From a virus (Duplodnaviria > Caudoviricetes): 55,815 bases of DNA. Shown here one piece after another: positions 17,601 through 46,706 of this stretch (its first letter is position 1; every line of letters begins with the position of its first letter). A program made the position numbers and the translations under genes. Under the pieces are notes generated by a model. That model was not told where the DNA came from. It made no database searches and was given only the letters and a program-made list of their open reading frames with translations. Location: the IMG/VR virus record IMGVR_UViG_3300013126_000040, positions 1 through 55,815 of that record, one strand, 5' to 3'.

Positions 17601-18545
17601 GTAAAAAATAAAGGAGATTATGGTAAGTTAGCGGCAAGATTCTCTTCATTTTATGGTAATGATTTTAAAAATAGATACTCTTCATTTGGAGAAAGAGGAT
17701 TTAATAATTATTTAAATTATATTGGTGCAAGTCCATTTTCATCCTTATCACAATTTAATGCATTTAAGTTCCCAATGACACCAAATATGTATAGTCCATT
17801 TGCATTCGGTAGTAGATATTTTGGCGGCTTTGGTGGAACAGGATATCAATCTGGTTTTAATTCATTAGGAACGCCATTTAGTAATTGGTTTTCTACAGGT
17901 AGCCGATTAGGAATAACTCCAAGTTGGGCAAGTAGAGCAACTGGAGGTATGATATATGGTGGTACATCATATAAAGACGATGTTCCAGCTATGCTAATGG
18001 GTGGAGAATATGTGATCCGCAAAGATGTTGTAGATAGAATGGGAGAGCCTTTTTTTAATCGTCTAAATAGAGGACAAGCGCAAGGATTTGCAGAAGGAGG
18101 CCCAGTAGGAACGAACTTGCCATCCGTTGGTATGGGACAAAATACACAGCAAGATAATTCTAGGAACCAATTTGTAGAATCAATTACTAAATTAGTTAAG
18201 TCTTTAGAGCAATTAAATAAAGGAATAGAAGAGCAGAATAGAGAAGGCAAAAATCAAGCAGAAAAAACAGCGGACAGTTCAGAGGCTGCTGGAGGAGTTA
18301 CAAATAATATTAATATTAATGTTAATGTTGATCAAAACGGGAAAACAACAGATTCAACTACGCAACAAGATCAAAACTCTGGAACAGATCAAGAGACAGA
18401 TCAAGAGAAATTTAAGAAAACAATGGAAAGATCTAGAGTCCTCGCAGAACTACTAAGACAACAAATATTAAAAGTACTAGTCGAAGAACAACGTCCAGGT
18501 GGAGTATTGTATCAAGGTACTAAAGGAAGAGACTTAGGACGTTAA
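8682..18545 (+). CDS. Tape measure protein (TP901-type core) with multiple inserted domains
   Basis: 3287 aa. N-terminal TP901-type core (ELARQG, DLAEALKR.GS, G.VIGNSLKTIF); hydrophobic Gly/Ala segments; two lambda gpH-like DDVPAML..GEYV motifs. Confidence 0.92.
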   Translation: MAQNIGEAQINLSVNTSQMEREVSAALKRLESRGFNLGQGINSRAFTQPLGRITGAANEFQKSLDASNARVIAFGASAGAIYSVQRAFTALISSTIEVQKSLTDINVILNAGTKTLSQFGDQLFEIAKNSGQTFATVATAAGELARQGLTLEQTLKRTSDALILARLSGLDAASSVEALTASINSFNQSALDSTQIVNKLASVDAAFAVSSADLAEALKRVGSSAQDVGVSFDELLAIVASVNQTTARGGAVIGNSLKTIFTRVQRTDVLDQLEALGIAVRDLNGNTAPAIQILTGLAQKFDQLGDAQRSQLAELVGGVFQINVLKAALGDLSKEYSIYGNALKTATNASDEAIRRNEELNKTLAALLNKTLANLTKVGSEIGALSFQPAIEKVLGGLNTALESFDVKGDSIGSKIGKGIFEGIGSFISGPGLALLIGVFGKIFLNLAKFTTDAVKTVLGLNREAQTQAQLQERINSILAQNPALVQNILNKQVSLLQVEKDILTIIQAQTQARQQSTAIATTLTRGLISKGVTSEKGVIRSKSRGFIPNFSTNKEIMGAISGGYMPGQVRSMNIPNYGRVIYNDAETVKKFSGLKQPGIMPPEGSDAGKNYKQKFKDKYGIDPYASSGFIPNFAGRPATNSQIASMIDQGYVRVTGNELKSYLKGAGGVLDPKKAIQFGAITRYDETWVPERKFNKLVYSSKADLESIAKKKGGVFEDKGGVPLDYALVYPGFQESNRFPTKGKTSRGKNIGFYAVPFPGQLKNKKNALVGPGVYGNAINALVDSSASFLTGLAGVSPSVVNSSKFKRYLKSNITQDQLGTLVGNVFEGGILAALEIAPSDRTRVLDLTAGELQKVGQTFKISSLSAGDFLGGDFKNSLSVGNRNSMADKIVNSGMRKALGFIPNFSPIEKALKTENRMGGKGVLDYQQGVGLYVRDGKTQPNFAAVMKDHPEGIQNAIQNSRQMQKLVSNGFIPNFAPAGFDPMTLFFTMQSFMGMGQNDMSEAVMKEERNKLAQILRERRAAQQLLAQAEKAEIKDQKLITTLTNEKAEFEAAESRQRSSMQNQMGVLARNPRGRIVGGFGGAAGRFAGRYGTGIALAAPLLTGIASEFVGDDVTRGGRATKAGVTGLGSIASYAGIGAMIGSAIPGLGTGAGALIGGGLGAISATTNAIKEFNDIMPELKAKAEKAQEGLNNVNAATQLLSTSLETLSSIQNNTSLSSEQRVRLQEKATEDLANSIAKLNEALPGSAAEIENLYRKVGDTAELRTKISELQAEAQKSSQAILSGTRAVASSKKFEDLVGPGFFEGFYGLLGETETVQERYKGLKPSERAQLNQDITSGAESISGLFNNLSNTERNIQSSKIQELVTTFNSKGLTGLKDLISGLVKNGEDAAYITEILNEINPDALERYFNKWLELQKSAERTEKLIADTNAKFARGEVPITRIEDLQRQFALPGGITPAALGRIDFNKMEQNLSGQKNLNFAEQFATGYRELSDSLGYGADRIKYLSEYTQQAAEIQKDWNNGAISTTQAFERLKIAIDKVNFEKNAPFMFSGERAQARQGILERQLKQGKFAEGLDPLNSFFDRFGDNAATTADKINKSFGNLAENLQTGFEDAFGAFVDGTKTADQAFKDMLLSISQQIIKEQFSIGMRSLLGAFTGGGGFGSTGGGNTGGFLGGIFNSIFGGKAKGGIIKKYSGGGYVDGGSGVKDDVPAMLTDGEYVLRKSAVNKYGINALNMLNQGGMIKGYAGGGGIEGRGYQPRPGERTMSAYINSIFSRGRDVSSYLNDRFLQANNNMVYRGGKGGDMLSKPVPFERRLSQGDAVGRLAGLEGKIIKGEALHSTPMFKQAAGYAGTSLNISFRNIAGKQFSVSSSTTDLPLASRADMVQSFYNLGDSLVMRPGPGGGSVYTQAMGMDVFGIKLKDYINAQVSDTVLNNLSPEERRLTSMTYTDGLELEAKGGRKGQAFLVRRYGDEAVRLPAPARKRINQEIKMGKISQPSYMPKPQRGAYLDSQILAKSARGLGPTSTFFDDLDMARSYSGIGQTTLGPKPNLASTMAPSLMQTAAKPSLLSRGLSLTKGLAGGLFQGLAYGPATEFLNPSSLGPIQGTLPYQLETGQISMKQFGLLSNIEKSDRAIFNAMNRRSAGGRIKGYATGGSINALLANTYDFYGAAGEKLNEYYMPEAFKTTVNAPGELSNVPALTGRFNISDLLSSRSLMDENNPMNALRTQRFLGMQSYQEQAANFKTGYNEQYRQVEEQRKEAQRLADEENARRRAAYNQQRMGTLIGGLLSVGFSAISPFLGGMGGGGGGILGGIQNIAQNVVSGIFSGAGQSGGSQTMSAYQKEMIAKQNEQAITSYQNYGFNDFRKQANLFPQFGNQGGFGGGFGGGMGGSNFAPTSSIGGFQFGVGLGAPAGFQTYFQNAQQDYLLNFASPVAPIAPGRSNLVYDFLNQNTNPFGYSRGYAKGGLIRGYQDGGIANQYLPSNALNLLVKGSDGKTYTLAQMGLTTNNTYADLERMGGQAFGGGYNNPELIYLLNEMQSGLGSQFNRVTGINDLFHMKKRAPGTSHRTGYKADFTLNDYKNGKENIINFLKGRGLKQGQDYALTYEGPGTPGSTGTHFDFKLNKTGVAKVAAMMSGMPVENIAMMQTNRPVIAGGIPSRTDLPNYLDLPLSPSASFPGASTNNIAGTNISTIGPQANPFTRINPITRALTPDGPSRSNRPYIGSRGSPVGSLMNPNKPTGIPSPFSSRGVLPSMGNRGVLPANPIQPQTGDFPTRGVLPSMGNRGVLPATQIPDISNPYFGPTRSPIMYDMGENITTAPKTVQPSQPPMGPSARATTQNFAKKVSEYFRDPLGILPSGGGLGKGAIPTIFPGRGNIPTIESPANLPSAAQKNGLPSSQVNVPGANQTPLDLSDPIIAEYVKSQSQLFEEAAQNSMMQLPYFRDLRNMVDMATGNAPTLYQSIGSLYDVKNKGDYGKLAARFSSFYGNDFKNRYSSFGERGFNNYLNYIGASPFSSLSQFNAFKFPMTPNMYSPFAFGSRYFGGFGGTGYQSGFNSLGTPFSNWFSTGSRLGITPSWASRATGGMIYGGTSYKDDVPAMLMGGEYVIRKDVVDRMGEPFFNRLNRGQAQGFAEGGPVGTNLPSVGMGQNTQQDNSRNQFVESITKLVKSLEQLNKGIEEQNREGKNQAEKTADSSEAAGGVTNNININVNVDQNGKTTDSTTQQDQNSGTDQETDQEKFKKTMERSRVLAELLRQQILKVLVEEQRPGGVLYQGTKGRDLGR
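16939..17067 (+). repeat. 48-bp direct repeat (2 copies, 81-bp period) encoding RGVLPSMGNRGVLPA
   Basis: 16939-16986 and 17020-17067 differ at two synonymous positions. Confidence 0.9.
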
Positions 18546-21500
18546 ATATTTTGATCGTTAATAAATACAAAAGTTTGAGATAATATATCTCCACTCTTAT
18601 CAACTAAATGGATTTTAACAGCAAACATGTTACCATTCTTAATCCAAGAATCATAGTCTTTTGCAATCTTATCAAATAACTGAGTGCCTTTTTTAGAGAA
18701 CGAAAAATCTGGAACAGATAAGTAAATAGGATATGTTTTAACAATATCATCAAATATATATGAGTCAATTAAGTCTGATCCTTTCCATGTGATATTATTT
18801 ATATTATCTATATTCTTCATATATATTAATATCTTATCTAATCCTACATTATGCTCTGGATAGCAAACTATACCAAAATTAAGCGTATTATTTGAAATAG
18901 TTGGTTTCTTGTATTTTATTTGATGAATAGATTCGCTATAATCGAAAACTCTATATCTCCACGCTGCAGATCCAAAAACTCTATTTATAGTTCCATCTAT
19001 TTTGCCAAAAGGATAATTATTTCCTTTCTGATCACCTATAAATTGTGATAATATATAAAATTGTTTATATGGCGCTCTAAGAACTATAGGATCAAAATCT
19101 TGAACACAGCACCCCTTTATACAATCTGTATTATTATTTAATAATGTATAAGGGCATTCCTTTAATATACTAAATTGATTATTATTTAGACTTGTAGCTA
19201 GAAGATAGATATCACCAAAGAAAGGTACATCATCTGGATCTTCAATAACTTTAAATTTAGTTGGGTATACCAAGAATGATATCATTTTCTTTGAATCAAC
19301 TATGTTTTTTTGGTCTATAGATATTCCATCTAAAACAGGATCTGTATCTACCCCACAGGAAGATATAAATTTTGCTACAAAATAATGATAATTTGTTCCA
19401 TTTACTTCTTTGATGCCTTTTTCTAGAATAGTATCTGTGCCCGATATACCTTGAACTATAAAATCCTCTGCGTCTGGAATATCTAATATGAATTCTACTA
19501 TTGCATAAGCATCATCTTTTTGAATACCAGCACTAATAAATTTAACTGCTAGTATATTTTTTGCTTTAAAATAGTTTAAATCATAATTCACGCTTTTAAA
19601 ATCTGCAGTATTTGGAGATTCTAAATCTCCTATATTACCAGGGTCATAGACTCCTAGGTAACTTTCACTGCCATATATTCCTGTGGTAGGAACATCTTCT
19701 GGCGCAAGGAATTCGTATGTGGCATTACTGATATATTTATAAGAATCTAAACATCTATAAGTAGTTTTATATTTATCTCCTATTAAGAAATTGTTATTGT
19801 CTTGAGCGTTAGCTAATGGAAAATAATCATAGAATTCTGGTCCAGAAGCAATTCCGTCGTATTCAAAATCTAACATTCTTGCTCCGCCTTTTTTAAGATA
19901 AGAATCTCTATAATTTTGATTAGGCCAAGCAATATAAGGAAAACTTTCTGGCGTAAAGAAATAAACAATTCCTTGATAACTTGCGGCAATCGTAGAAGTA
20001 TAATTCTTTGTGTCTTTAATAAACTTATTTAAGGTTATATATTTATCAATTAGCTCTGTATTTTGAATATAATATTCTAAACCTTCATTTGTAAATCCAA
20101 TTTCACTTAAATAAGCGTATAAAGAATATGATTGTATAGCGTTCAAGTAGTATATTTTTGCAGAGAAAATATTATCTTTTAGTAAAACACTATCTGGATT
20201 TAAATATGTTGTGATTCGATATTTAGTTTCTGTTTGAGAATCTATTAACTCAACAGAATAGTTCTTCTCCGTATTATTTTCTATTTTATCTAAATTTTTT
20301 AAGAATATAAAATCGTCAGAATAACTCTTAGTTTGTTTGATGTTTATATTTTGTTCATATTTTTGAGGTATAATCACTATAGATTCTAAACCAATATCAA
20401 CAGGAAGCATATCTCCTTTGATTTCAAAAATAATCTTATTATCTTCTAATCTTTTATAATTCTTAAACATTTTTGTTACATTATTTCTAGAGATACTATT
20501 ATGTTGTATTTTTACTATCTTATATCCATCTTGATTTGTATATCTTTCTATATCATTAGCTCTATTAATATTCCCACCAGCAGAAGAGAAGCCGTCTTCA
20601 TCTATTGCTTCTGCAGTTATGTAATATGAATTATAATGACCTGGTTCACTTACTCTTATGTAATCGGTTGGTCTTTCTCCAGTCGTTCCGGTTAGATTAA
20701 GTCTCTTATGTAAGAAAGATTCGGGTGTATCCATCTCTGGATTAAACAATATCGTATTTTCCTCAGAAGAGCCTTTGATATATTTAGTATTAGAAGTTAG
20801 AAATGAGCTATAATTACTACTATAATCAAAAATAAAATATCTATTATTGTCCGAAGGTATCGAAGTGTATTCTGGGGAGCGAATAATATTCGTATCTGAA
20901 ATGGAAATACTCTCATTTACAGAGAAATCTTTATTTATCGAATTACCAGCGGATTGAAAAGCGTAGACATCATTTGATGTGTTTCTTAGTATAGTTTGAT
21001 CAAAAAGAATACCGCTGTTATTTTCTAAGGCTGGAATTACTCGATTATATATTCTAGTATATTTATTTTTAAAATAAGGAGAGAAGTCTTTGTAGAGAAA
21101 GCCTTCGACATTTGCATATTCTGGAGTTGTAGGAGAAGAATAATTTATTTGATATCCTAATAGAGCATAAGGCTCGTTTATAGTAACCACACTTGAATTG
21201 TTACATGATTTCATCGAGCCACTAGAATAATAATTTAAATTTTGTAGACTAACTTCTTTTATTAAATTTTGATAGGGAATCAGACCAGTAAATAAGACCC
21301 CAGAAGATTCTAATCCTAAATTATTCTTAGCAAAAACTGTCAAATAATGTAAACCTGTGTTTTTAGGTATATAATAGAAATATTGATCTGTTTCAGAAAA
21401 CGGTAGTTCTTTTATCAAAAAATTAGAAGGATTATTATTGGGCTCTAAATTGTAAGTATAGTCGCTAAGATATATATTATAACCTTCTCTATTTTCTTTG

Positions 21501-21985
21501 CTTTGTATTGGTTTAATTCTAATTTTAAAGCCTTGAGTATTTTTAGTAATATTAATTACATCAGCTTCTATGGATGGAATATCGGTATCTAAAACCTGAA
21601 ATTCTAAAACATAATTAGCGTCGGAACCTAGCTGCTGTACTCTCAATGTATAATTACCAGGATTATAAGGTGCTGCAACTGATAAAACTTCTTGATTTAT
21701 ATTTCCCGATCCAAAATGCTGTTGGGCCAACATTAAGCCAGGATTATCTCCTACAGTCCATGCGGAACCAGATTGAATGCCCAACCAAGCAACATTATCA
21801 GAAGAACTATAACCTCTAAGAAAAATTTTATCTAATATTTGATTATTCTTTACAAGGAAGGTAAAATAATCACTATTTCCAGCTACAAAACCAATGACAA
21901 AGTCATTACCGTTATTTAAAGTTACAACAGTTGGCGAATCCGTAGAATTAGAAAAAGGGCCGTCTATATTCTCATCCCATATCAT
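18542..21985 (-). CDS. Tail tip/fibre protein with N-terminal beta-sandwich and FN3-like domain (probable detached gpJ C-terminal part)
   Basis: 1147 aa, downstream of gpJ with an AAGGAG RBS. DYFTF...GNYTLRVQ PPC-like domain; GYNIY...YLTVFAKNNLGLES FN3-like domain. Confidence 0.55.
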   Translation of the reverse strand: MIWDENIDGPFSNSTDSPTVVTLNNGNDFVIGFVAGNSDYFTFLVKNNQILDKIFLRGYSSSDNVAWLGIQSGSAWTVGDNPGLMLAQQHFGSGNINQEVLSVAAPYNPGNYTLRVQQLGSDANYVLEFQVLDTDIPSIEADVINITKNTQGFKIRIKPIQSKENREGYNIYLSDYTYNLEPNNNPSNFLIKELPFSETDQYFYYIPKNTGLHYLTVFAKNNLGLESSGVLFTGLIPYQNLIKEVSLQNLNYYSSGSMKSCNNSSVVTINEPYALLGYQINYSSPTTPEYANVEGFLYKDFSPYFKNKYTRIYNRVIPALENNSGILFDQTILRNTSNDVYAFQSAGNSINKDFSVNESISISDTNIIRSPEYTSIPSDNNRYFIFDYSSNYSSFLTSNTKYIKGSSEENTILFNPEMDTPESFLHKRLNLTGTTGERPTDYIRVSEPGHYNSYYITAEAIDEDGFSSAGGNINRANDIERYTNQDGYKIVKIQHNSISRNNVTKMFKNYKRLEDNKIIFEIKGDMLPVDIGLESIVIIPQKYEQNINIKQTKSYSDDFIFLKNLDKIENNTEKNYSVELIDSQTETKYRITTYLNPDSVLLKDNIFSAKIYYLNAIQSYSLYAYLSEIGFTNEGLEYYIQNTELIDKYITLNKFIKDTKNYTSTIAASYQGIVYFFTPESFPYIAWPNQNYRDSYLKKGGARMLDFEYDGIASGPEFYDYFPLANAQDNNNFLIGDKYKTTYRCLDSYKYISNATYEFLAPEDVPTTGIYGSESYLGVYDPGNIGDLESPNTADFKSVNYDLNYFKAKNILAVKFISAGIQKDDAYAIVEFILDIPDAEDFIVQGISGTDTILEKGIKEVNGTNYHYFVAKFISSCGVDTDPVLDGISIDQKNIVDSKKMISFLVYPTKFKVIEDPDDVPFFGDIYLLATSLNNNQFSILKECPYTLLNNNTDCIKGCCVQDFDPIVLRAPYKQFYILSQFIGDQKGNNYPFGKIDGTINRVFGSAAWRYRVFDYSESIHQIKYKKPTISNNTLNFGIVCYPEHNVGLDKILIYMKNIDNINNITWKGSDLIDSYIFDDIVKTYPIYLSVPDFSFSKKGTQLFDKIAKDYDSWIKNGNMFAVKIHLVDKSGDILSQTFVFINDQNI

Positions 21986-22008: not shown

Positions 22009-25000
22009 TTAAATATTATCTCCTAAAGCGTATTTTGTTTCATCATATTGTAAAGCTGTTACTTTATATCTATATTCTTCTTGCTCTTCAATATCTAAAA
22101 TTCTAAATTTTTGGGTTTTATCTATATATGGCTCTAATGCTGCTCCTGGATATTTAACTCCAGGATCACTAAATCCAGAAACACTTGGGCTTTTATTGTA
22201 ATCATAACTATCTGGATCTATTTCTATTGTCCAGACTGTATTTTGCATTAAAGTATGTTCTGTGTCATCTAAAGATTGTCCACCAAAATAAATTTTTGTA
22301 TATCCTTGAAAATTACCTGTTGGTTCTATAGTTACATAATTTCCAAATACATTTGTTCCTACAGGATTCGAAATTGAATAATCTGTTTCATATTTTATTG
22401 TTTGAATTTGTTTTTTCCTTATAAGAGATGTATCTAAACCTGAAATTAAAGTTCTTTGTCCGTCAGATTTAGCTACAGTAAATGGTCTATTATTATCCGC
22501 TCCAAACTCTATGACTGCATTTCCAGTTTCTGTGCCTATTTCAACGTTTCCTGCGGGAGTTAATACATTAAAATTACATCCATTTATTGCTGGTAAAAAT
22601 CCAGAAATATCTTCGTATTTAATATCTAAGATAGCATAATTTTTCTCTAATAAATATGTTCTTCCTCCTAAAATTTTATTTTGTCTATTTTGGTCTTGTA
22701 CATACACAATGTCTCCAGGTTTTAAATACATCGCTGGCAAACTGGTCTCAAAAGTAACTAATTCTGACTCTAAATTTTCTGATAGTAATGTCCATTTTCC
22801 TAATCTTTCGGCTTGTCCTTCGCTTGTGCAACCAAAAGCGCTTACTTCTATTTCTTTTATACCAAACCTAATTAGACCTTCTCTACTTTCTACATATTTT
22901 ACTGCTGGCTTATAAAAATTTTCTTTATCATTATATCTAACTAGCGCGACATTTCTTCTTACTCTTTTACTTGTATTACTATATGTAAATTCGCCATCTT
23001 TTACATTACTATTATTAAATATATATAATGGCTCTTTAGGCTTGTCTTGAGAAGTAAATATTAATCCAGCATTATAGAAAACAATTGCTCTAAAAATACT
23101 AGCCATGTCATTAACTACTTTATAAGCATCTTCTCTTGTGCTAATTAATACGTTACAAGTAAATCTAGGCTCCATTCCATCTCCTGCTCCTCCAGAGCTG
23201 ACTAATTGATCACAATATTTTGAGATCTCATAAAGAGTCCATTTATCTGTTAAATCTGGATCTACATATTTACCCAGTCCATATCTTTTGTTTGTTATTA
23301 AATCATAGAAACACCAAGCTGGGTTGTCTGTCCATCCTAAATTAAAATTTCCATCCCAAATTCCGGTATAAGTTCTAGAATAAGGATTATAATTGCTAGG
23401 TATTTTTACTTTTAATAATCTTGTATCATAAGCTCTTTGTGGAATACTGGTAAAATATCTAGAATCAAAAGTCGTTATAACTCCTGCGGTATGTGGTAAG
23501 ACTAAGAAATCATCATATATTTCAGTTACAGAATCTATCGCACTTTTTACAACTATATTTGGGTCAACACTCTCATCATAAACTGGTTCAATTTCTATTT
23601 CCCATCCCACAGTTGTTGATCTTACATATCGATTTAAACCAGTCCATTCAAACGTTTCGATATATGGTCCTTGATTTAATTTACCCGCAATTGTTAATGT
23701 TGAATAATCTCTAGCTTCTCCGGCTAATAATCTTTGTCTTTTATTAATATAATCCTCTAAAGATGTACGAAAATCACGTTGTAATTTATTAACGTCATTT
23801 GCGTATGTTGTATATACTTTGCCGTCATGTCTATGAGAATAAGTAGTTCTTCCATTAATAAATTCTGTGAAATTAGCTGGTTGTCTTTTGTATCCATCGG
23901 GTCCTGGTCCACCTCCTGGAGAATCTGGAGGCCAGAATAAAGATAATACATCATTTTCTTTACTGTATACAGTATTGTAATATGTTTCTTCGCTTATTGT
24001 AAATGTACCTGATGAGGCTCCAGTATAATTTGGATTTGGTATAAGAGTTACTTGTTTACCAATGTTTGGTATATAATCTATTCTCTTTAAGTAAAGATAA
24101 AAAGTCATTTCCTGACGGTCTACTCTTCCACTTACAGAATTTTTTGAGGCTTGATCTGCGCTGTCCCAAATAGTTAAATCAATAATATTTTTAAACAAAC
24201 TCAAAGCTTTTATGTTAAGTCTTAGCCCATATAAATCTTTAGTTAAGATTGTTAATGATTTTTTATAAGTTCTATAACTTCCATCTTGGAATTTTCTTCT
24301 ACCAAATAATTTAGTACCTACGACTTTTGTATTTGTTAGTCTACGTGGCATCTTTATTTTTGATAGTAAGGTATTTGAATTTTGATCATATAAAGATACA
24401 GTATCTAAATATTGTCCATTATTAACTTTTCTTGCATAAAAAGGTTCTTCTAGTTTTATGTTTCTTAATTCGCTTAATCTCGTGTGTCTTGGAGCAGAAT
24501 CACCATAATCATAAGCTAATCGAATAAATTCAAAATTTAAACTACCTCTTTCTGGAAAGGTATTGTCTGCAATAGGTATTTCATTCCAGTATATTGATCT
24601 TAGCAAAGAGTCTGTTCCTTGATATTTGACTATTCGAACTCCATTTTTATATCCTATATCTCCTATTTGTGCTCCTACATTTGGTACTATTTCATAGTCT
24701 ACAATACCTTCAATAGGCCCTTCTCCAAGAACATCTAATAAGGATATATTTGTTAAAGAAGTGATACCTATATCTTTTGTATCTTTTAATTTATTTCCAT
24801 ACCTAAATGCATAGTTATTTATTTGCTGCTTATCTCCTGCTCTGCTTACTATAGTATGACAATTGGCTGGAACTTTAGAATTTGGCAATTTATAATTATC
24901 ATTCCAGTTTCTAGTGCCTTTTCTATTTGCTCCATAACGATTATGAACAAATATACCTTCTGCGATATAATTATGATATTTCTCTACTTCGAAATTATAT

Positions 25001-27375
25001 ACTTTTTCAAATCCATCGGGCTCTATTGTAATAATCTTTAATTTCTTTTTATTGAAAGTATATAAATAGTCTCCAACTTTTATATCTAAAAGTAATTTAT
25101 ATTCATTATCGTTTGTTAAAAATGGATGACATTTTGTGCATCTTATTTGTGATCCATCTTCTAATACTACTTTAGTAATTGGCTCCAAATCTTGACCTTC
25201 ATCGAAAATTTCAGATATTTTAGATATTTTTAAATCTTGAGTATAATCATCATAACCATAGACTTCATCATCTTTCTTTAATTCTTCTATATTTTTTAAT
25301 CCGCTTGGAGTATATACTTTAGTTCCAGCTGGAAAGCATCTGCTAGAATACGAACATGAATATACATCTCCTGCTTGTGTAGTATATGTACCTATATACA
25401 TAGTAAATCTAGTGAATACCTTGTTAAAAGCACAAGTATCAGCTATATGTACATAAAATGTATATGTACCATTTGCATTTGGTATGCCATTAGGATATCT
25501 TAAAAGATTACTTTTTGATAATCTTGAATTTGCTGTTGGAGAACTTCTTTCTAAAGAACCTCCATCAAATATTACTTGATGTTCTACTTGAGTTGGACTA
25601 ATTGTAATAGTCGGTACATTTTCTGCTTGATTTGCGCTAATGGAAGTTCTAATAGTATTCGTTGCAACTACTGATAAATCTTCTACAAATGGAGTAGATG
25701 CAGGTCCACTAGCATTTGCGTCTGGAGTATAACAAACATTCCCTAAACGATCTGCTTGATTTGTTAAAGCAAATTGAATAGCATAATTTCCTCTAACAGA
25801 AGTACTAAATTCTCCATTTCTTGCGTTTGCAGCCGTTGGATCATCTATTTGTAACCAAAAACAAGTTTCTGGGTCTACTCCTTGTCCAGGAGAAAAAGTG
25901 GTATTTGGAACAGTGGCGCCTATATTTGTAATACCACCAGGTTTTCCATCTTTTCTTATAGTTTCAAATTCATTTCTATTTATCTTTTTAAAGCTTAAAA
26001 TTTCGTCTCCGTTACTAGCTAAATTCAAAACAATTTTATTATTTTTTATAATATCAAAATTCCATGATGGTAATCCAATTCTGCTTGGATAACTATTCGC
26101 TGCTGTAGGTCTATTATTTACTGTATATGGATTAAAGTTGAATGTTAATGTAGCTGTTGAACTTGATCCTTTAGCATTAGAGCAACTAGCGTAAGCATAA
26201 AATGTACCTGCATGCCTTGGAGTTCCTGTGATATGTTTGCTTGTGGAATTAAATACTAATCCTTCTGGCAAAGAAGATACAGCGAGAATTGTATGTTTAT
26301 TATTTAATCCAGCTAAAGTTTGATTTCCAATCGCTGTTCCTACCGTGCCTGTAAAAGTTTTAGCTGATACAGTTGGTAAGGGGTCAGTAGTTTTTTGCAC
26401 GCCATATAGTATAGACAAATTAAAGTCTTTTCTATTACCTGCGTCTGAATTTGGTCCATAGACTTTAAAACTTAAAGTTGCAGTTTTAATATCTGCGCCA
26501 ATGCTTAAAGATACTGATCCACTAATAGTTTTAGTATTTGGATTCCATGTTAGCCCTAGATTTTGTAAAATATTTAAAGAATTTGAATCTAAACTGGCAC
26601 TATATTGATTGCTTGGTATATTTGTAGTTAAACTATAACTAAAGGCTTGACCTCTAAAAGCATGTGTAGTTGGGGCACTAGTTACATTAATTGGATCATT
26701 TCCATATTGATCTGTGCTTTTTATTGTTAAACTTTTAGAAGCTTTGAATGTTTCTAACTGCGATGTTTTATTTTTACCACTACCAACGCTAATAAATCTA
26801 TTACCATTTAATATAGATTCAATAATTCCAGTATAATATCCAACATAATTAATTCTATCTTTTACAAATGCTATATTCGTACTATTTCCATTTGCAAATC
26901 TTAATCTATCACTAGAATTTAAATCTGCTAATACTCCAAAATCTGTATAATTTAAATAAGATACTACTTGTTCCAATTGGACATTAAAAGAAAAAGCTGT
27001 GCCCACTCTTGATGTTGTTGTCGCTGAACTTAAAATAGCAGCAGCGGTTGGATTTACTCCTGGAGTACCATACATAACTAATCCATTCACAAAACTCCAA
27101 ACAAACCAAAATCCATTTCCTCTATCTACTCCTTCAATACTAACTTGATTAGTTGATGATTCAGGTAAAGGATTAGGATAAGTCGTGCTTGCTGAAAAGA
27201 TTGGATTATATGCGTCTACTAAATCATCTACATCTGCTAAAGTAATATCACTTGAACTAGGTTTTCCTACATCATTATATATTGCATATCCATCGTAAGA
27301 AACGCCATTTTTACCTCTCCAGGCTAGCCCTTCGATATATTTATTTGGATCACAATCTTTACATTTCTTTGCCAT
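22009..27375 (-). CDS. Central tail fibre/tip protein, lambda gpJ-like, with N-terminal Ig-like domains and a Hint domain
   Basis: gpJ motifs DVLGEGPIEG, VKIPSNYNP..RTYTG.WDG.F, WTDNPAWCFYDL.T..RYGLG, EPRFTCN, AFGCTSEGQA.RLG.W. He_PIG-like LPEGL.F......ITGTP in the N-terminal extension. Confidence 0.92.
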   Translation of the reverse strand: MAKKCKDCDPNKYIEGLAWRGKNGVSYDGYAIYNDVGKPSSSDITLADVDDLVDAYNPIFSASTTYPNPLPESSTNQVSIEGVDRGNGFWFVWSFVNGLVMYGTPGVNPTAAAILSSATTTSRVGTAFSFNVQLEQVVSYLNYTDFGVLADLNSSDRLRFANGNSTNIAFVKDRINYVGYYTGIIESILNGNRFISVGSGKNKTSQLETFKASKSLTIKSTDQYGNDPINVTSAPTTHAFRGQAFSYSLTTNIPSNQYSASLDSNSLNILQNLGLTWNPNTKTISGSVSLSIGADIKTATLSFKVYGPNSDAGNRKDFNLSILYGVQKTTDPLPTVSAKTFTGTVGTAIGNQTLAGLNNKHTILAVSSLPEGLVFNSTSKHITGTPRHAGTFYAYASCSNAKGSSSTATLTFNFNPYTVNNRPTAANSYPSRIGLPSWNFDIIKNNKIVLNLASNGDEILSFKKINRNEFETIRKDGKPGGITNIGATVPNTTFSPGQGVDPETCFWLQIDDPTAANARNGEFSTSVRGNYAIQFALTNQADRLGNVCYTPDANASGPASTPFVEDLSVVATNTIRTSISANQAENVPTITISPTQVEHQVIFDGGSLERSSPTANSRLSKSNLLRYPNGIPNANGTYTFYVHIADTCAFNKVFTRFTMYIGTYTTQAGDVYSCSYSSRCFPAGTKVYTPSGLKNIEELKKDDEVYGYDDYTQDLKISKISEIFDEGQDLEPITKVVLEDGSQIRCTKCHPFLTNDNEYKLLLDIKVGDYLYTFNKKKLKIITIEPDGFEKVYNFEVEKYHNYIAEGIFVHNRYGANRKGTRNWNDNYKLPNSKVPANCHTIVSRAGDKQQINNYAFRYGNKLKDTKDIGITSLTNISLLDVLGEGPIEGIVDYEIVPNVGAQIGDIGYKNGVRIVKYQGTDSLLRSIYWNEIPIADNTFPERGSLNFEFIRLAYDYGDSAPRHTRLSELRNIKLEEPFYARKVNNGQYLDTVSLYDQNSNTLLSKIKMPRRLTNTKVVGTKLFGRRKFQDGSYRTYKKSLTILTKDLYGLRLNIKALSLFKNIIDLTIWDSADQASKNSVSGRVDRQEMTFYLYLKRIDYIPNIGKQVTLIPNPNYTGASSGTFTISEETYYNTVYSKENDVLSLFWPPDSPGGGPGPDGYKRQPANFTEFINGRTTYSHRHDGKVYTTYANDVNKLQRDFRTSLEDYINKRQRLLAGEARDYSTLTIAGKLNQGPYIETFEWTGLNRYVRSTTVGWEIEIEPVYDESVDPNIVVKSAIDSVTEIYDDFLVLPHTAGVITTFDSRYFTSIPQRAYDTRLLKVKIPSNYNPYSRTYTGIWDGNFNLGWTDNPAWCFYDLITNKRYGLGKYVDPDLTDKWTLYEISKYCDQLVSSGGAGDGMEPRFTCNVLISTREDAYKVVNDMASIFRAIVFYNAGLIFTSQDKPKEPLYIFNNSNVKDGEFTYSNTSKRVRRNVALVRYNDKENFYKPAVKYVESREGLIRFGIKEIEVSAFGCTSEGQAERLGKWTLLSENLESELVTFETSLPAMYLKPGDIVYVQDQNRQNKILGGRTYLLEKNYAILDIKYEDISGFLPAINGCNFNVLTPAGNVEIGTETGNAVIEFGADNNRPFTVAKSDGQRTLISGLDTSLIRKKQIQTIKYETDYSISNPVGTNVFGNYVTIEPTGNFQGYTKIYFGGQSLDDTEHTLMQNTVWTIEIDPDSYDYNKSPSVSGFSDPGVKYPGAALEPYIDKTQKFRILDIEEQEEYRYKVTALQYDETKYALGDNI
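24940..25338 (-). other. Hint (BIL-type) autoprocessing domain in gpJ, 133 aa
   Basis: CFPAGTKV start, TKCH block B, KVYNFEV..YHNYIA.GIFVHN end. The +1 residue is Arg; no endonuclease domain. Confidence 0.9.
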
Positions 27376-27378
27376 AAA

Positions 27379-28698
27379 TTAAATTGATAATGAATTATCT
27401 CCTATTGAATTTCCTTGAATGTCTTGAATATTTATAGGATATCCTTGATGAGAAAAATAAAAGCTTTTTGTAGGATAATTTTTTTCTCCTGCGCCAACAC
27501 CAATCGGAGCTTTACCATCGCTTTCATATTTATTTGCTCTTGATTGAATTCTGTATAATTGATCGTAAGAACTAAAAATTTGTTGACTACCTATGATTAG
27601 TCTACCATAGCCAATTGGTACTGGACCTCCTTCTCCAATAGTATTAACTGGACCATTAAATGTATAAGATGGTTCTCCACCTCCTGTATCTGGAGATGCC
27701 TCAAAATCTGCTGAAGGATTTGCTATCTGTTGAGGACTAACCATAGGTGGCGGTTTCATCAACAACATAGAAACTCCAAGAGCTACTAAACCTAAAATAG
27801 CTGGCGCCAACAGTCCTAATATACCCAATGAACCTCCACCAGATACAGGAGCTAATAATATACTTAAAAATACAGCAAAAATACTTTTAAATCCACCTCC
27901 ACCACCTGCCCCCTTGCCTCCACCGCCACCTCCTTTTCCTCCTCCTCCATTATGCACCAAAATATTATTGGCTATGTAAGTATGATTTTTCATTACATGA
28001 AAATTATAAACTTTTTCATTTCCATCTTCTTCTATTCTTTCAATAGGCATTACATCTCCACTTTTATGAATTAGAACGTCTCCAACTTTAAAATTTTCAA
28101 GAGGACTAAATCTATTGTATTCATTAAAAAACCAATGATTTCCTGTGCTTCTAATAATTGATCCATCCCATAATGTAATTTTTAGAATTTTATTGTTCTC
28201 GTGCTCAAATACTTTTTCAATGATATCAATTTGTATATTTTTGTCTTTATCAAAAGATAAAATTTCGTCTCCTTCTTTTAAATCTTCTATATTTTTTTCT
28301 CCTTGAGGTGTTGAAACTTTAGTGCCAGCCGGAAAGCAACCTTGTGGTCCTCCGCCTCCTCCGCCACCTGCCCCTTCTACTATTGGTATAATATCTATAG
28401 TTTTTAACATAGATCCAAAGTTCATAAACATTTCTGATTCAGATAATTTTGCAAAATGTTTTTTATTAACGTCTTTATAATCTAGAGGCATTTCTTCTGC
28501 CTCTGGAACCCATAATGGACGATGATTAATTAATATTTCATATTTAGCGTTTTTCTCAGACTGATCGATGAAAAGCTTTGTTAGTTTGTTTGTGTTAGCT
28601 TCTATAGCTCTAAAAGCTTCTGCTACACTAGAGACATTTAGATCCCATTCCTCACCAATTTCTTGGCCCAAGTATCCATGTAGTTTGACCTTAACCAT
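27379..28698 (-). CDS. Tail assembly protein, lambda gpI-like (ubiquitin-like N-domain), with a Hint domain
   Basis: VKLHGYLG...V.SVAEA.RAI...IIPIVEGAG Ubl region; hydrophobic segment; SYTFNGPVNT..EG.PVPIGYGR..IGS gpI C-terminal motif. Confidence 0.92.
   Translation of the reverse strand: MVKVKLHGYLGQEIGEEWDLNVSSVAEAFRAIEANTNKLTKLFIDQSEKNAKYEILINHRPLWVPEAEEMPLDYKDVNKKHFAKLSESEMFMNFGSMLKTIDIIPIVEGAGGGGGGGPQGCFPAGTKVSTPQGEKNIEDLKEGDEILSFDKDKNIQIDIIEKVFEHENNKILKITLWDGSIIRSTGNHWFFNEYNRFSPLENFKVGDVLIHKSGDVMPIERIEEDGNEKVYNFHVMKNHTYIANNILVHNGGGGKGGGGGGKGAGGGGGFKSIFAVFLSILLAPVSGGGSLGILGLLAPAILGLVALGVSMLLMKPPPMVSPQQIANPSADFEASPDTGGGEPSYTFNGPVNTIGEGGPVPIGYGRLIIGSQQIFSSYDQLYRIQSRANKYESDGKAPIGVGAGEKNYPTKSFYFSHQGYPINIQDIQGNSIGDNSLSI
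27949..28338 (-). other. Hint (BIL-type) autoprocessing domain in gpI, 130 aa
   Basis: CFPAGTKV start, TGNH block B, KVYNFHV..NHTYIA..ILVHN end. The +1 residue is Gly; poly-Gly flanks on both sides. Confidence 0.9.
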
Positions 28699-29437
28699 TT
28701 GCGCGCTCCTTGTACCTCAGAACATAACTAGTATGCTTCTTGAAGAAGTTATCATATATATTTACACAAGAAAAAGAATTAAAAGGCTGGTGTAAAATTA
28801 ATCCATCACCAATATATACTGCCGCATGAGTAGGAAATTTATCAGAAACCCCAGGAAACATCATCATGATTCCATCTGATTTATTTAATTTAATACCTTT
28901 ATCTAACTTAATAAAACCTTGATTTTTAAAGTTTGTTTCATATAAATCTTTTATATCGTCTAAATGTCTTGGATATGTTAAATCTTTAGGGAATTTAATA
29001 TGAACTTTCTCTTCTTTTAAAGCATATTCTTGCATTAATGTAAAACAATCTGATTTACCTAAAACAAATGGTCTTCCTATATATGGATTATTCTCTTTAT
29101 TTGGAGAATAAAAATTAAATATATCATATTTTATATTATATAATATATAGTGAATATTATATGCATTACTATTACTTTTATCAATTTCACTAAACTCTAC
29201 GCTTTCATTTACATGAGAATGATAACAAGCCACAATCTTACCTAGACTAGAACAATTTAAATAATCTTGAGGAGATATAATAAAATTATTTATTTTATTT
29301 TCTGCTCTGTTTTTACATGGAAATATATCAAATTTATATTCTTTTTCTTTAAAGTAAATAAATCCGCAGATTTCTTCATTAGTCTTTTTAAGTGCAAGAT
29401 TTTTAATATAGATTTTAATTTGAGAATTAAATTCCAT
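28691..29437 (-). CDS. Tail assembly protein, lambda gpK-like (JAB/MPN + NlpC/P60)
   Basis: JAMM motif EEICG...YHSH...SEID; NlpC/P60 motif SDCF...THAAVYIG...LHQ. Confidence 0.92.
   Translation of the reverse strand: MEFNSQIKIYIKNLALKKTNEEICGFIYFKEKEYKFDIFPCKNRAENKINNFIISPQDYLNCSSLGKIVACYHSHVNESVEFSEIDKSNSNAYNIHYILYNIKYDIFNFYSPNKENNPYIGRPFVLGKSDCFTLMQEYALKEEKVHIKFPKDLTYPRHLDDIKDLYETNFKNQGFIKLDKGIKLNKSDGIMMMFPGVSDKFPTHAAVYIGDGLILHQPFNSFSCVNIYDNFFKKHTSYVLRYKERANG
28753..28767 (-). promoter_or_regulatory. Possible internal late promoter motif upstream of gpI
   Basis: GTGTAAATATATATG on the minus strand inside the 3' end of gpK, about 65 nt before the gpI start. Confidence 0.4.
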
Positions 29438-29441
29438 ATAT

Positions 29442-31751
29442 TTATGGTCCTTGCATGCTTTGTTGAGATTGAAATTTTCCTTCTACCGATGGGAACCCGC
29501 CAAAAGGTAATACTCCCATCAATTGAGTTCCGTCTGCTGCTAATGGAGCTCTAACTTCGAATTTTAATAAAGTATCAGCAATGTTTTCGTTTGGACCAAA
29601 CATATGATTTACTGCTAATGTTTTTACTGGAAAATTAATATTTTCTTTCCATCTTAATCTGCATCCAATTAAAGTCTTTGAACAAGCGTCTGACTCCCAA
29701 TATTCTGTATTAGGTGGAGAATTGATAAAATCTGCTGTATGCTCTGATTTGCAAACAAAATAATATTTTATATTATTTTTTTCTATATGAACATAATTTC
29801 CATAGCGATAGTTTACGCCTTGCTGCCAAGCGTTTCTATCTATCCATTCTCCTTGTCTATATTGAGAAAAAGTTGCATCAGATGCGTTTGCTACTGGTGG
29901 AGCACTTTGTAATCCTTTACAAGACTGAGATGTAGAGACGCTTACTCTTGACATTCCATCGGATCCAGCAGTACTATTTGCATTTATCACAGAATTTACA
30001 ACTCCAAACACTCCAGAATGCATTTCATTTAGTCTATCGTGTCTTTCATAAACGCATCCCTCTCCTCTATATGTAAATGGGCAATTTTTAGATAATAAAA
30101 TTCTCGCTGGCAGTTTAACTCCTTCTATATCCAATAGTGAGGCTAATTCATATACAACATTTTGAGAATCTTCTTGAACTTTTCTATCAATATAGTATAT
30201 ATCAGGCGTAAGCTCTACTTCGTAAATATCAATCTTTTTTTGATTTATTTGATCTAGATAATCTCTTGCCATATTTTGATATGATGTATATATTTGCGTT
30301 GAATTTGGACTTGTTAATTCTTCTGTTATATAATCTGTAGCAACTAAGTGAATATTTTGAGTTTGTAATTGAGCATTATTTCCTGTATGAGTTGCAACGA
30401 ATGTACAACCACTCGTACTAATGTTTTTTAAATATTGATTATATAAAAATCCTGCACTTCCCCAGCTATTAAATAATATCTTTGGTGTGGTAGAAAAAAC
30501 AGTAGGAAAAATAATATTATGTTCGCCTGACGTAGCTGATCCAAAATTAGGATTTAATTTCAAAGCTATAAATTTTGCATTTTCATTTGAATATGGATTA
30601 ACGCCTGTATAATTTCCGGTAGGAATAGTCAAATAATTTATATCAAAATTATTATTTAAAGGTTTAGAGAAAGCTGCAGTAAAACTTGTAGAAGTTTGTG
30701 TTGATATAGAATAATTAAAACTTTCAGCAATAGTTTCATTTGGTGCTCTCAAAGATAGAAAAGTAATTAGTTCTGAACCATTTTCAGAGAATGAAACTGG
30801 ATAGTTTATAGTTGAGGTCGAGCTATTGCTAAAAGATACTGAATTAAAGTAACATAAAACTTTTATTGGCGTATTTAAATCTTTTTTTCTAAACTCTTTC
30901 TCGGACATCGGAATAATGTTTGTGTATGTATTTTGTGCTGGTATTATAAAGACATCAGAAGAAAAAGCGTCAATTACATCAGAAGTCTCATTTACCTTTT
31001 CATTTACAAAAAGATTAAAAAAATCTAAAGAATTTAAATGATAAATTTGCCTTTGCAGGTTAATATCTAAAGTCTTTAATCTATCGTCTGTTCTTGAACA
31101 TGTAAATATTTTATTTGAAATCTGAATTGGTTTGACTCCATAAATTAACCATTTAGCAAATCCTATTGGAACTCTTTCTAAAGACCTAACAGTTAAAACC
31201 TCTCCGTCTCTCGATGCCCATGGCGTATCTGAGAAAGTATTAAATGGATTTACCGCTGCTGGGAAATTGTCTGGACTTAAATATCTTACAAAAGTTTTTC
31301 TTCTAGTAACTTTTGATCCAACAATATCTTTTAACTCTTGAATCTGCATTCTAATATATTTATAGAAAGAGTTAAATTCATCATCTAAAAATTGACTAGA
31401 AAATTTTACTTTTGGAGTTGGAATTGTACCATTAGAAGTTATATCAAACTGTTCTCCGTAGACTGGAAAAGGAAAATAAAGATTTCCTCGCCATTTTATA
31501 ATTCCTCGGTTAATATTAAAAAGATTAAAATCATTATGTATTCTTATAATTCCGTCTCTTACTGGACCATTTCGATTGGGATAAGTGATGGTAGCAGGTT
31601 TAATTTCATTTAAATCTATTTCATATAGAAAAATTGGGGTTGTAGGTTCGATCTCATGGATATGAGAATTAATCGATCTTTGAGCTTCTAAAGCTTGTAA
31701 GAAATATTCACTAGCTTGAACGACTTGATTAGGGCTCGATCCCATTCCCAT
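29442..31751 (-). CDS. Minor tail protein, lambda gpL-like, with inserted domains
   Basis: G.KVTRRKTFVRYL...NF, YYIDRK, ELAS.LD....LP.R, C...YRGEGC, DACSKTL.GC.LR and PFGGFP motifs (four conserved Cys). Confidence 0.9.
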   Translation of the reverse strand: MGMGSSPNQVVQASEYFLQALEAQRSINSHIHEIEPTTPIFLYEIDLNEIKPATITYPNRNGPVRDGIIRIHNDFNLFNINRGIIKWRGNLYFPFPVYGEQFDITSNGTIPTPKVKFSSQFLDDEFNSFYKYIRMQIQELKDIVGSKVTRRKTFVRYLSPDNFPAAVNPFNTFSDTPWASRDGEVLTVRSLERVPIGFAKWLIYGVKPIQISNKIFTCSRTDDRLKTLDINLQRQIYHLNSLDFFNLFVNEKVNETSDVIDAFSSDVFIIPAQNTYTNIIPMSEKEFRKKDLNTPIKVLCYFNSVSFSNSSTSTINYPVSFSENGSELITFLSLRAPNETIAESFNYSISTQTSTSFTAAFSKPLNNNFDINYLTIPTGNYTGVNPYSNENAKFIALKLNPNFGSATSGEHNIIFPTVFSTTPKILFNSWGSAGFLYNQYLKNISTSGCTFVATHTGNNAQLQTQNIHLVATDYITEELTSPNSTQIYTSYQNMARDYLDQINQKKIDIYEVELTPDIYYIDRKVQEDSQNVVYELASLLDIEGVKLPARILLSKNCPFTYRGEGCVYERHDRLNEMHSGVFGVVNSVINANSTAGSDGMSRVSVSTSQSCKGLQSAPPVANASDATFSQYRQGEWIDRNAWQQGVNYRYGNYVHIEKNNIKYYFVCKSEHTADFINSPPNTEYWESDACSKTLIGCRLRWKENINFPVKTLAVNHMFGPNENIADTLLKFEVRAPLAADGTQLMGVLPFGGFPSVEGKFQSQQSMQGP

Positions 31752-31775: not shown

Positions 31776-32366
31776 TTATGCAGAAACTTCTTCAAGTTTT
31801 GCTCGAACAGAATAATTTTCTTTAAATGTAAAATTTGTTTCCCATTCTCTACATACATATTTTGTTCTATACGTTTGTTCGGAATATATGTCTCCAGGAT
31901 TATAAGCAAAAGCATAAACACCAGACCTTTGCTTTAGAAAATGGACTATTGCTCGCGCTTCTCTAGATGTTCTTTGATCAAAATTTAATTGAAGAGTTTT
32001 TAAATCTGGATTAATACTTTTTGCTATTCTTTGTTCATATCCATTTCCGAATCTAATTGTAGTTACGCTAGGTTTATGTTGAATTGTAGAAGTATAAGAA
32101 GGAGTCCAAACAAATTTTGTAATTCTTATATTATTAGATAAAGTTATTACTCCTCCCCAATATGCGCCTCCAGAATTTGTATCTGGTTCACTTTCTACTG
32201 TTTTAAAATGATCCTTTAAACAATACCAAAAGTCACCTTTGTATTTCACAATATCATTCTTTAAAAAATTATGTCCTAGGGATTTATTGGCCCATTGAAC
32301 CATAGGGTCATTAATAGAGCCCGTATCCTCTTGTCTCAAATCAATTCTTGGTATGCCCATGCCCAT
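31776..32366 (-). CDS. Distal tail protein, lambda gpM-like
   Basis: FGNGYEQR....IN, AIVHFL....G..AF.Y, YVCREW motifs; N-terminal CBM5/12-like module. Confidence 0.88.
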   Translation of the reverse strand: MGMGIPRIDLRQEDTGSINDPMVQWANKSLGHNFLKNDIVKYKGDFWYCLKDHFKTVESEPDTNSGGAYWGGVITLSNNIRITKFVWTPSYTSTIQHKPSVTTIRFGNGYEQRIAKSINPDLKTLQLNFDQRTSREARAIVHFLKQRSGVYAFAYNPGDIYSEQTYRTKYVCREWETNFTFKENYSVRAKLEEVSA

Positions 32367-46701: not shown

Positions 46702-46706
46702 TCTTT

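Follow-up and report, generated by a model that had tools for sequence, protein, structure and literature searches.

The window analysed here, the whole 55,815-bp stretch of the IMG/VR virus record IMGVR_UViG_3300013126_000040 (Duplodnaviria; Caudoviricetes; CheckV completeness 36%, GC content about 30%), encodes a lambda-type tail tip in which two neighbouring genes, gpI and gpJ, each carry a Hint domain, and it raises the question of what such domains do to the proteins that contain them. The initial annotation, made from the letters of the sequence, had read three adjacent genes as a candidate self-processing and ligation system: gpK with an intact JAMM peptidase motif, gpI as a fusion of a ubiquitin-like domain (Ubl) to a Hint, and gpJ with a second Hint behind an immunoglobulin (Ig)-like arm. 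This arrangement is present at the coordinates given below, and the individual domain calls agree with Pfam and PHROGs matches and, for the Ubl and Ig labels, with AlphaFold2 models compared by Foldseek. What is new is the presence of type A bacterial intein-like (BIL) domains in a recurrent, well-defined tail-tip context, which is broader than that annotation saw. We consider it probable, by analogy with the BIL family, that both Hints are competent type A BIL (pretoxin-HINT-like) domains that excise themselves from tail-tip precursors, mainly by cleavage and perhaps with some re-ligation.

Results

Two Hint domains in the tail-tip operon

The operon lies on the minus strand in the order gpM-gpL-gpK-gpI-gpJ, as judged from open reading frame (ORF) calls together with Pfam and PHROGs matches. 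Its three central genes and their parts are as follows.

28691-29437, minus strand: gpK, 248 amino acids, TAPK-like tail assembly protein (phrog_30, E-value 2.9e-55)
29126-29395, minus strand: gpK JAB domain, residues 15-104 (Pfam)
28718-29077, minus strand: gpK NlpC/P60 domain, residues 121-240 (Pfam)
27379-28698, minus strand: gpI, 439 amino acids, whole ORF
28375-28698, minus strand: gpI N-terminal ubiquitin-like domain (MoaD/ThiS-type beta-grasp), residues 1-108 (phrog_32; AlphaFold2; Foldseek, with weak E-values)
28339-28374, minus strand: gpI poly-Gly linker 5' of the Hint, residues 109-120, GAGGGGGGGPQG, with Gly at -1
27949-28338, minus strand: gpI Hint, type A BIL-like, 130 amino acids, residues 121-250 (Pfam, PDB match, catalytic residues)
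27892-27948, minus strand: gpI Gly/Lys-rich linker after the Hint, residues 251-269, GGGGKGGGGGGKGAGGGGG
27379-27891, minus strand: gpI C-terminal part, residues 270-439, hydrophobic helices and TAPI-C (phrog_32, phrog_4554; PDB 9L9P, 25VF)
22009-27375, minus strand: gpJ, 1788 amino acids, whole ORF
25339-27375, minus strand: gpJ N-terminal extension, residues 1-679, a putative arm of tandem Ig/cadherin-like beta-sandwiches (AlphaFold2/Foldseek, relatives)
24940-25338, minus strand: gpJ Hint, type A BIL-like, 133 amino acids, residues 680-812 (Pfam, catalytic residues)
22009-24939, minus strand: gpJ core (central tail fibre/tip attachment protein J), residues 813-1788 (phrog_31, E-value 1.7e-122; PF13550)

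The gpI Hint matches PT-HINT (PF07591) with 42.9 bits against a cut-off of 27.7 over residues 128-250, and the gpJ Hint matches both Intein_splicing (PF14890; 49.4 bits against 35.8) and PT-HINT (31.5 against 27.7); because these scores exceed curated thresholds, the domains cannot be put down to chance. Over their whole length the Hints share 47% identity. The initial annotation had identified their key residues correctly: the gpI Hint runs from Cys121 through the block B motif TGNH to His249-Asn250 and is followed by Gly251 at +1, and the gpJ Hint, preceded by Arg679 at -1, runs from Cys680 through TKCH to His811-Asn812 and is followed by Arg813. At 130 and 133 residues both are too short to contain a homing endonuclease, and they align end to end with mini domains of 128-138 residues, with no endonuclease insert. 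Their closest sequence match in the PDB is 2LWY, a 'bacterial intein-like domain' (E-value 2e-11), which supports the BIL-type class proposed at the outset, followed by the gp41-1 mini-intein 6QAZ (E-value 1.2e-9). No further Hint was found in the 55.8-kb record, and five related virus records of 56-96 kb contain exactly two Hints each, both in gpI or gpJ.

Across the window and its related loci (L001-L027), all 27 gpI Hints and all 17 gpJ Hints keep Cys1, TxxH and the terminal His-Asn. The residue at +1 is Gly in all 27 gpI Hints, with Gly (24) or Ser (3) at -1; in gpJ it is Arg (8), Gly (7) or Met (2), with Thr (15), Asn (1) or Arg (1) at -1. When +1 residues and insertion sites were tabulated in homologues, as the initial annotation had suggested, none of the 44 Hints of this clade had Cys, Ser or Thr at +1, which rules out their being canonical inteins. 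Among database representatives, 30 Hints of the gpI class have Gly (29) or Lys (1) at this position and 30 of the gpJ class have Gly (24), Ala (4), Arg (1) or Met (1), the latter class, assigned by a regular expression, being an undercount in that P0131, P0141, P0176 and P0204 fell into 'other'.

According to the accessible part of a minireview of BIL domains (PMC4031507), the branched intermediate is impossible without a +1 nucleophile, type A domains keep the terminal His-Asn, and the amine freed by Asn cyclisation can attack the N-terminal thioester and thereby ligate the flanks; the type A domains that have been tested gave mostly cleavage products. Judged by sequence, the window Hints answer to the type A description in every respect, with a length of about 130 residues, no endonuclease, Cys1, TxxH, a terminal His-Asn and a +1 residue other than Cys, Ser or Thr, and they differ in their hosts, which are the phage tail-tip proteins gpI and gpJ, and in their poly-Gly-flanked placement at a domain or gene boundary. 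Type A BIL domains are reportedly the subject of work by Amitai in 2003, Dassa in 2004 and Aranko in 2013. Canonical mini-inteins such as gp41-1 share the fold family and catalytic residues, but they differ from the tail-tip Hints, which lack the +1 nucleophile and sit in linkers rather than in conserved catalytic motifs. The pretoxin HINT family of polymorphic toxins is the best Pfam family for the gpI Hint and exceeds its cut-off in both Hints; in the available text on these toxins (PMC3417536) such a Hint precedes a module thought to be released by autoproteolysis, whereas here the gpI plug domain or the J core follows and there is no toxin module.

Purifying selection on the Hints

In comparisons of the window with 15 related loci, the ratio of nonsynonymous to synonymous divergence (dN/dS) is 0.04-0.24 for the gpI Hint and a similar 0.01-0.14 for the Ubl, with dS near saturation in several pairs. 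This range, together with the retention of every catalytic residue in the 27 gpI and 17 gpJ Hints, rules out decaying or dead Hints and agrees with the initial annotation's view of them as intact. The proportion of synonymous differences in the gpI Hint (0.42-0.67) lies near that of the C-terminal flank in the 11 cleanly aligned comparisons; in the other four of the 15 (L007, L014, L018 and L026) the flank was misaligned by insertions and deletions (proportion of nonsynonymous differences about 0.5), and these were disregarded. On the strength of this resemblance in synonymous divergence we reject the reading that the type 1 gpI Hint, one of two subtypes described below, spread recently in a homing-like way. 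Several proteins conserve the Hint better than any other part of gpI, as in P0014 (Ubl 79%, Hint 92%, C-terminal part 88%). Judged by their sequences, the Hints appear to be functional and, over short time spans, to have been passed on together with the gene.

The gpI Hint lies in the linker of a TAPI protein

Residues 1-114 and 300-374 of gpI match tail assembly protein families in PHROGs (phrog_32, E-value 1e-24), and with its Gly-rich linker, its TAPI-C and its place between K and J the protein has the characteristics of tail assembly protein I (TAPI). An AlphaFold2 model of residues 1-115 (predicted local distance difference test, pLDDT, 88; 35-row alignment), searched against the PDB with Foldseek, has MoaD/CysO/SAMP1-type beta-grasp proteins as its six top matches and Urm1 at rank 11. 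These fold matches agree with the accessible part of PMC1779556, which places TAPI among the ThiS/MoaD-like Ubls by profile comparison and where a cut by JAB at the Ubl's last Gly is a prediction of 2006 and, as far as that text goes, one never shown; the initial annotation's background of a ubiquitin-like gpI and a JAB domain in gpK is consistent with this source. The gpI Hint occupies the same Gly linker region in which that cleavage was predicted (PMC1779556), and imperfect Gly-codon repeats stand on either side of it. In the available text of two lambda tail structures (PMC11101478, PMC10721106), only residues 101/135-223 of gpI are visible; they form a trimeric plug inside the tip lumen, with the N-terminal domain missing from view. 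The gpI C-terminal part is, by analogy, the counterpart of this plug. The locus as a whole resembles lambda TAPK-TAPI-TAPJ in gene order and in its domains (JAB with NlpC/P60, Ubl, Gly linker, TAPI-C and J), and differs in its two Hints, in a 679-residue Ig-like arm fused upstream of J and in a gpL of 769 residues.

The gpJ Hint lies at a gene boundary

The best PHROGs match of gpJ is central tail fiber J (phrog_31), accompanied by a match to Phage-tail_3 (PF13550; 66.6 bits). Upstream of the Hint, a He_PIG match remains below the Pfam cut-off (21.9 against 24 bits), and an AlphaFold2 model of residues 1-679 (pLDDT 75.7, 13-row alignment, residues 1-68 disordered) matches tandem beta-sandwich arrays of the cadherin, protocadherin, SraP and titin type at E-values of about 1e-9 (Foldseek). 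On this model, the extension is a chain of Ig/cadherin-like beta-sandwiches and adhesin-like. Its first 24 residues (27304-27375, minus strand), M(A/P)KKCKDCDPNK(Y/F)IEGLAWRGKNG, are near-invariant over 13 relatives and contain an invariant CxxC pair; this segment is modelled as disordered and could form a metal site or act as a docking peptide.

The motif GDVYSCSY precedes the gpJ Hint by 5 residues, and the canonical J N-terminal motif EGPIEG follows it by 73 (residues 885-890). Stand-alone arm proteins (P0271-P0274, 675-697 amino acids) end 3-16 residues past the motif GD[VI]Y.C, and J cores encoded by two-gene relatives start with MGYG... or MGYY..., which aligns with the post-Hint RYGA... 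of the window. In two such loci a stop codon and a new ATG stand where the Hint would sit, L007 having TAG, 12 nt and then ATG after AAGG, and L014 a TAA that overlaps the next ATG. The arm/core region therefore occurs in three natural states, as two genes, as a direct fusion and as a Hint-joined fusion, which makes it a clear case of a Hint at a gene boundary.

Distribution among gpI and gpJ relatives

A word-based search for gpI relatives, counted as clusters, gave 28 with a Hint (P0005-P0032), 50-92% identical, and five without (P0033-P0037), 291-299 amino acids long and 61-72% identical over the flanks. In the alignment these five have one continuous Gly/Lys linker where the others read Gly-Hint-Gly. 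Among IMG/VR loci, the gpI Hint is present in all 26 that cover gpI, and the gpJ Hint in 16 of the 25 that reach the gpJ junction (L005 and L008 stop short of it and are outside the 25). The nine loci without a gpJ Hint comprise seven direct arm-core fusions and two (L007 and L014) in which the break between two genes falls precisely where the Hint would be; the fused junction of L006 is about as long as the window's joined flanks, and L009-L013 and L016 have a variable linker. The initial annotation had reckoned that sporadic, decaying Hints with Cys, Ser or Thr at +1 in close relatives would speak against it: the distribution is indeed patchy in close relatives, yet the Hints are not decaying and have none of these residues at +1.

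The gpI Hints fall into two subtypes, type 2 (P0028, P0029, P0031 and P0032) being 39-45% identical to type 1. P0028 and P0029 have flanks 70-75% identical to the window's despite their type 2 Hint. In a Hint tree thinned by dropping 5/6 of the 'other' Hints and 2/3 of those from L034-L113, type 1 forms one clade (support 0.98), type 2 groups with the two tandem Hints of the gpJ protein P0165 (0.95), and the gpJ Hints of the window clade form one group (0.955). The presence of type 2 Hints in close gpI flanks and their grouping with P0165 indicate that the cassette was exchanged and passed between gpI and gpJ. At the same linker, the distant gpI P0137 (39% identical) has an unrelated Hint, with Lys at +1. 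On these sequence comparisons, the Hint appears as an exchangeable, poly-Gly-flanked cassette of tail-tip genes, selected where present yet dispensable, and the existence of Hint-less gpI and gpJ alleles among close relatives contradicts the idea that the Hints are required.

A wider family of Hint-gpJ proteins

When 1.84 billion representatives were scanned in full with gpI, 11,788 proteins reached E-values of 0.001 or below, and the best 150 of these include many large proteins with a Hint at the very start. Their Pfam layout is Hint, FNIII-A_GpJ and Phage-tail_3, and their sequence begins with Met and a stretch of 7 to about 33 residues that closes with a Gly run, followed by a Hint (Cys...VHN), a Gly/Lys run and the canonical J N-terminus. 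Besides the window, at least 27 gpJ representatives (50%-identity clusters) have a Hint, which in 25 of these proteins falls within the first 34 residues; among uncultured phages a Hint at this end of gpJ is common. In three gpJ proteins (P0126, P0131 and P0165) two N-terminal Hints stand in tandem with a Gly/Lys run between them.

An IMG/VR search with patterns of which two were derived from the Hint and linker confirmed at least 310 relatives out of 596 matches, from which 80 loci were kept. All 43 complete N-terminal gpJ Hints among them (L034-L113) have Cys1, TxxH and His-Asn, with Ala (40), Gly (2) or Thr (1) at +1, and in most only 11-27 codons separate the upstream stop from Cys1. Where the gene upstream of an N-terminal gpJ Hint is covered, in 43 loci, it encodes an ordinary gpI of about 200-240 amino acids without a Hint.

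Neither the window's gpI-Hint form nor the Hint-gpJ N-terminus was found in 50,697 GenBank phage records (INPHARED), which would explain why these Hints had gone unnoticed: there was no DNA match to the operon, gpI had only 3 weak partial matches, and the Hint-gpJ N-terminus only 4 weak matches, to helicase or hypothetical genes. We found no published account of Hints in gpI or gpJ in the literature searched, supplements not covered, and candidate papers on inteins concern those of terminase, helicase or reductase. Longer proteins with the window's Ubl, such as an I-Hint-J fusion, numbered 0 among 129 candidates, which is weak evidence.

Tandem BIL arrays related to the tail-tip Hints also occur outside phage tails. 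Bacterial proteins including P0125, P0127 and P0133 have 3-4 tandem Hints separated by KGG(G), with Lys at +1, followed by Tim44-like domains, and P0163 is a subtilase with PKD domains and four Hints; we set these arrays aside as belonging to unrelated host proteins.

gpK is independent of the Hints

The gpK domains score above their Pfam cut-offs (Prok-JAB, PF14464, 29.9 bits against 25; NlpC/P60, PF00877, 25.3 against 23), and the JAMM motif (E, HxHx7Sx2D) is intact at residues 73-86 (HSHVNESVEFSEID). It is likewise intact in 89/89 gpK homologues of at least 200 amino acids whatever their Hint status, from loci with a gpJ Hint only (36), no Hint (27), both Hints (15) or a gpI Hint only (11), which rules out a gain or loss of JAB coupled to the Hints and leaves little of the initial proposal that the three genes form one dedicated system. 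By its sequence, gpK appears to be an ordinary JAB and NlpC/P60 tail assembly protein with no specific tie to the Hints. Lambda virions lack gpK, according to the available text of PMC11101478 and PMC10721106.

Discussion

How would such Hints act in the tail tip? In the self-excision that we favour, Cys1 would undergo an N-S acyl shift to form a thioester at the preceding residue (Gly120 in gpI, Arg679 in gpJ), the terminal Asn would cyclise and cut the C-terminal junction, no branched intermediate would arise because +1 is not Cys, Ser or Thr, and the thioester would mostly be hydrolysed, giving cleavage, with a fraction attacked by the freed alpha-amine, giving ligation by aminolysis. Excision from gpI would leave a Gly-tailed MoaD-like Ubl apart from a Gly/Lys-tailed part with the membrane helices and plug, and excision from gpJ would leave an Ig-like adhesin arm and a J core whose new N-terminus would match the natural J start of two-gene relatives, the Hint serving as a linker that removes itself where modules or genes meet. 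We observe directly the identity of the domains, their residues, conservation and distribution and the equivalence of their sites, and take the chemistry and the ratio of cleavage to ligation from the BIL family. Cleavage is favoured as the main outcome because tested BILs mostly cleave, in the accessible part of PMC4031507, and because most gpJ Hints have merely a short leader to ligate.

BIL domains have hitherto been reported chiefly from bacterial surface and toxin proteins, and here they are recurrent and under selection in a lambda-type tail tip, at two defined places. With one Hint in the Gly linker of gpI and another before the J N-terminus, these phages offer a handle on whether and where gpI is processed and on the role of its Ubl, and a naturally self-cleaving variant, as predicted here, would make a 'cleaved' state of gpI testable.

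Several points weigh against our interpretation. Its chemistry is borrowed entirely from family membership. A ligated product would also resemble natural proteins, in that seven of the nine Hint-less gpJ proteins are fused and the Hint-less gpI linker is continuous; since Hint-less counterparts are both fused and split, the balance between cleavage and ligation cannot be read from sequence alone. In the fold match of the gpI Ubl, Foldseek probabilities are 0.84-0.99 but the E-values are weak at 0.026-0.15, none reaching 0.001. The N-terminal gpJ Hint occurs in 45 of the 80 IMG/VR loci kept, among the matches listed, a proportion that is not a frequency because the search patterns were partly derived from the Hint. 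In a tree of gpI flanks (Hint removed, eight outgroups), three Hint-less proteins (P0035-P0037) are sister to the Hint-bearing P0032 (Shimodaira-Hasegawa-like approximate likelihood-ratio test, SH-aLRT, 100) and the other two (P0033 and P0034) to 13 Hint-bearing rows (SH-aLRT 87); three state changes are needed, and the approximately unbiased (AU) test rejects a single Hint-bearing clade (p 7e-5). In a tree of J cores, the window's Hint-bearing group (support 99) is nested among Hint-less rows, with at least two state changes (AU test, p 0.043), the groups in both AU tests having been named after earlier FastTree trees had been seen. As far as sequences can tell, dispensable, patchy Hints of this kind are as compatible with a parasitic or neutral cassette as with a useful one.

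That alternative, which we regard as unlikely but as the most serious, holds that efficient aminolysis splicing without a nucleophile restores gpI and the arm-J protein and that the cassettes persist through clean excision and recombination between Gly linkers. It would account for the patchy distribution, for close relatives with an uninterrupted linker or a short fused junction, for the replacement of type 1 by the divergent type 2 Hint within similar flanks, for the clade that type 2 gpI Hints share with the tandem gpJ Hints of P0165, for tandem Hints in some gpJ proteins and for the imperfect Gly-codon repeats beside the gpI Hint. The +1 residue, nearly always Gly or Ala, would be a good amine nucleophile, and the accessible part of PMC4031507 describes BIL ligation without nucleophilic side chains, but the type A domains that have been tested give mainly cleavage products. 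Nor is there a homing endonuclease to drive such cassettes; two-gene relatives indicate that arm and J need no joining, and where a gpJ Hint has a leader of only about 11-27 residues, as most do, ligation would restore nothing of evident value. The confinement of Hints to two tail-tip genes in all five records searched, and a synonymous divergence of the type 1 Hint that tracks its flank and suggests vertical descent over recent spread, also argue against it. On the initial annotation's view of the Hints as domesticated rather than selfish, the evidence points both ways, with tail-tip restriction and strong conservation on one side and the gain, loss and replacement of Hints on the other.

We think it very unlikely that the Hint is a pro-domain that times assembly, keeping the J N-terminus or the gpI plug blocked until excision is triggered by folding or docking, and perhaps shielding the Gly/Lys tail from host defences. 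Its recurrence in many divergent phages immediately ahead of the canonical J N-terminus, the strongly purifying selection and the restriction to tail-tip genes would suit such a role, as would the need of the lambda gpI C-terminal part to enter the tip lumen (PMC11101478, PMC10721106, in their available text). Hint-less relatives nevertheless assemble without one, tandem Hints have no obvious use for a checkpoint, and the sequence data are silent on timing and triggering. Peptidase_S74 chaperone domains of tail spikes and fibres also cut off a module after folding, but their fold and chemistry are unrelated and their position is C-terminal.

Least probable of all is the transfer proposed in the initial annotation, in which the Hint thioester would activate the gpI Ubl, or the gpJ arm, for passage to another tip protein without E1 or E2 and the gpK JAB domain would trim or remove the adduct. 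Its chemistry is plausible by analogy with cholesterol transfer by the Hedgehog autoprocessing domain, in which the nucleophile that resolves the Hint thioester is not a +1 side chain. No other precedent for transfer is known, and unlike Hedgehog the tail-tip Hints have no sterol-recognition region and no known acceptor. The thioester Gly would sit 14 residues after the last strand of the MoaD-like beta-grasp, and the Gly/Lys-rich tails after both kinds of Hint, which form the N-terminus of many J cores once the Hint is excised, could be amine acceptors. We give little credence to the corresponding scheme in which the Hint would replace E1 chemistry, oligo-Gly/Lys tails freed by excision would capture the thioester and the gpK JAB domain would edit the cross-linked tips. 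The same K-I-J module is kept by close Hint-less relatives, the gpK JAMM motif persists whatever the Hint status, no conserved acceptor residue specific to Hint-bearing phages was identified, and the window gpJ has Arg rather than Gly at both -1 and +1; a general activation of the gpI Ubl is further contradicted by the 43 loci with an N-terminal gpJ Hint, where the upstream Hint-less gpI could form no Ubl thioester. No E1 or E2 is encoded in the tail-tip operon, and no sequence feature that we found requires transfer. Conjugation of a Ubl to the central tail fibre is known from the bacterial Bil defence system, as the initial annotation stated (bioRxiv 10.1101/2023.09.04.556158, in its accessible part). 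If transfer were true, it would constitute virus-encoded ubiquitin-like ligation free of an enzyme cascade and yield covalently cross-linked tail tips.

Neighbouring genes

Two further genes of the operon lie upstream of gpK.

31776-32366, minus strand: gpM-like minor tail protein (phrog_14, E-value 6e-23; operon context)
29442-31751, minus strand: gpL-like minor tail protein, 769 amino acids (PF05100/phrog_18 match split by a large insertion; operon context)

The PF05100/phrog_18 match of gpL is in two parts, residues ~24-165 and 517-570, with an insertion of about 350 residues between them. Directly downstream of gpJ, an ORF of 1147 amino acids (18542-21985, minus strand) has no PHROG or Pfam match and is probably a fibre or adhesin, as is an ORF of 1835 amino acids (37301-42808, plus strand) whose only domain is an H-type lectin at residues 1446-1506. 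An ORF of 3287 amino acids (8682-18545, plus strand), with PhageMin_Tail at residues 127-314, probably encodes a giant tape measure protein; it is convergent with the tail-tip operon and has a 4-nt overlap with the end of the 1147-residue ORF, so the tip genes run opposite to the tape measure gene. Next to a glycosyltransferase-like ORF (44782-46713, minus strand) lies a DNA polymerase III alpha-like protein (846 amino acids; 47329-49869, minus strand), and the phage, with an estimated genome of about 150 kb, encodes its own replicative polymerase.

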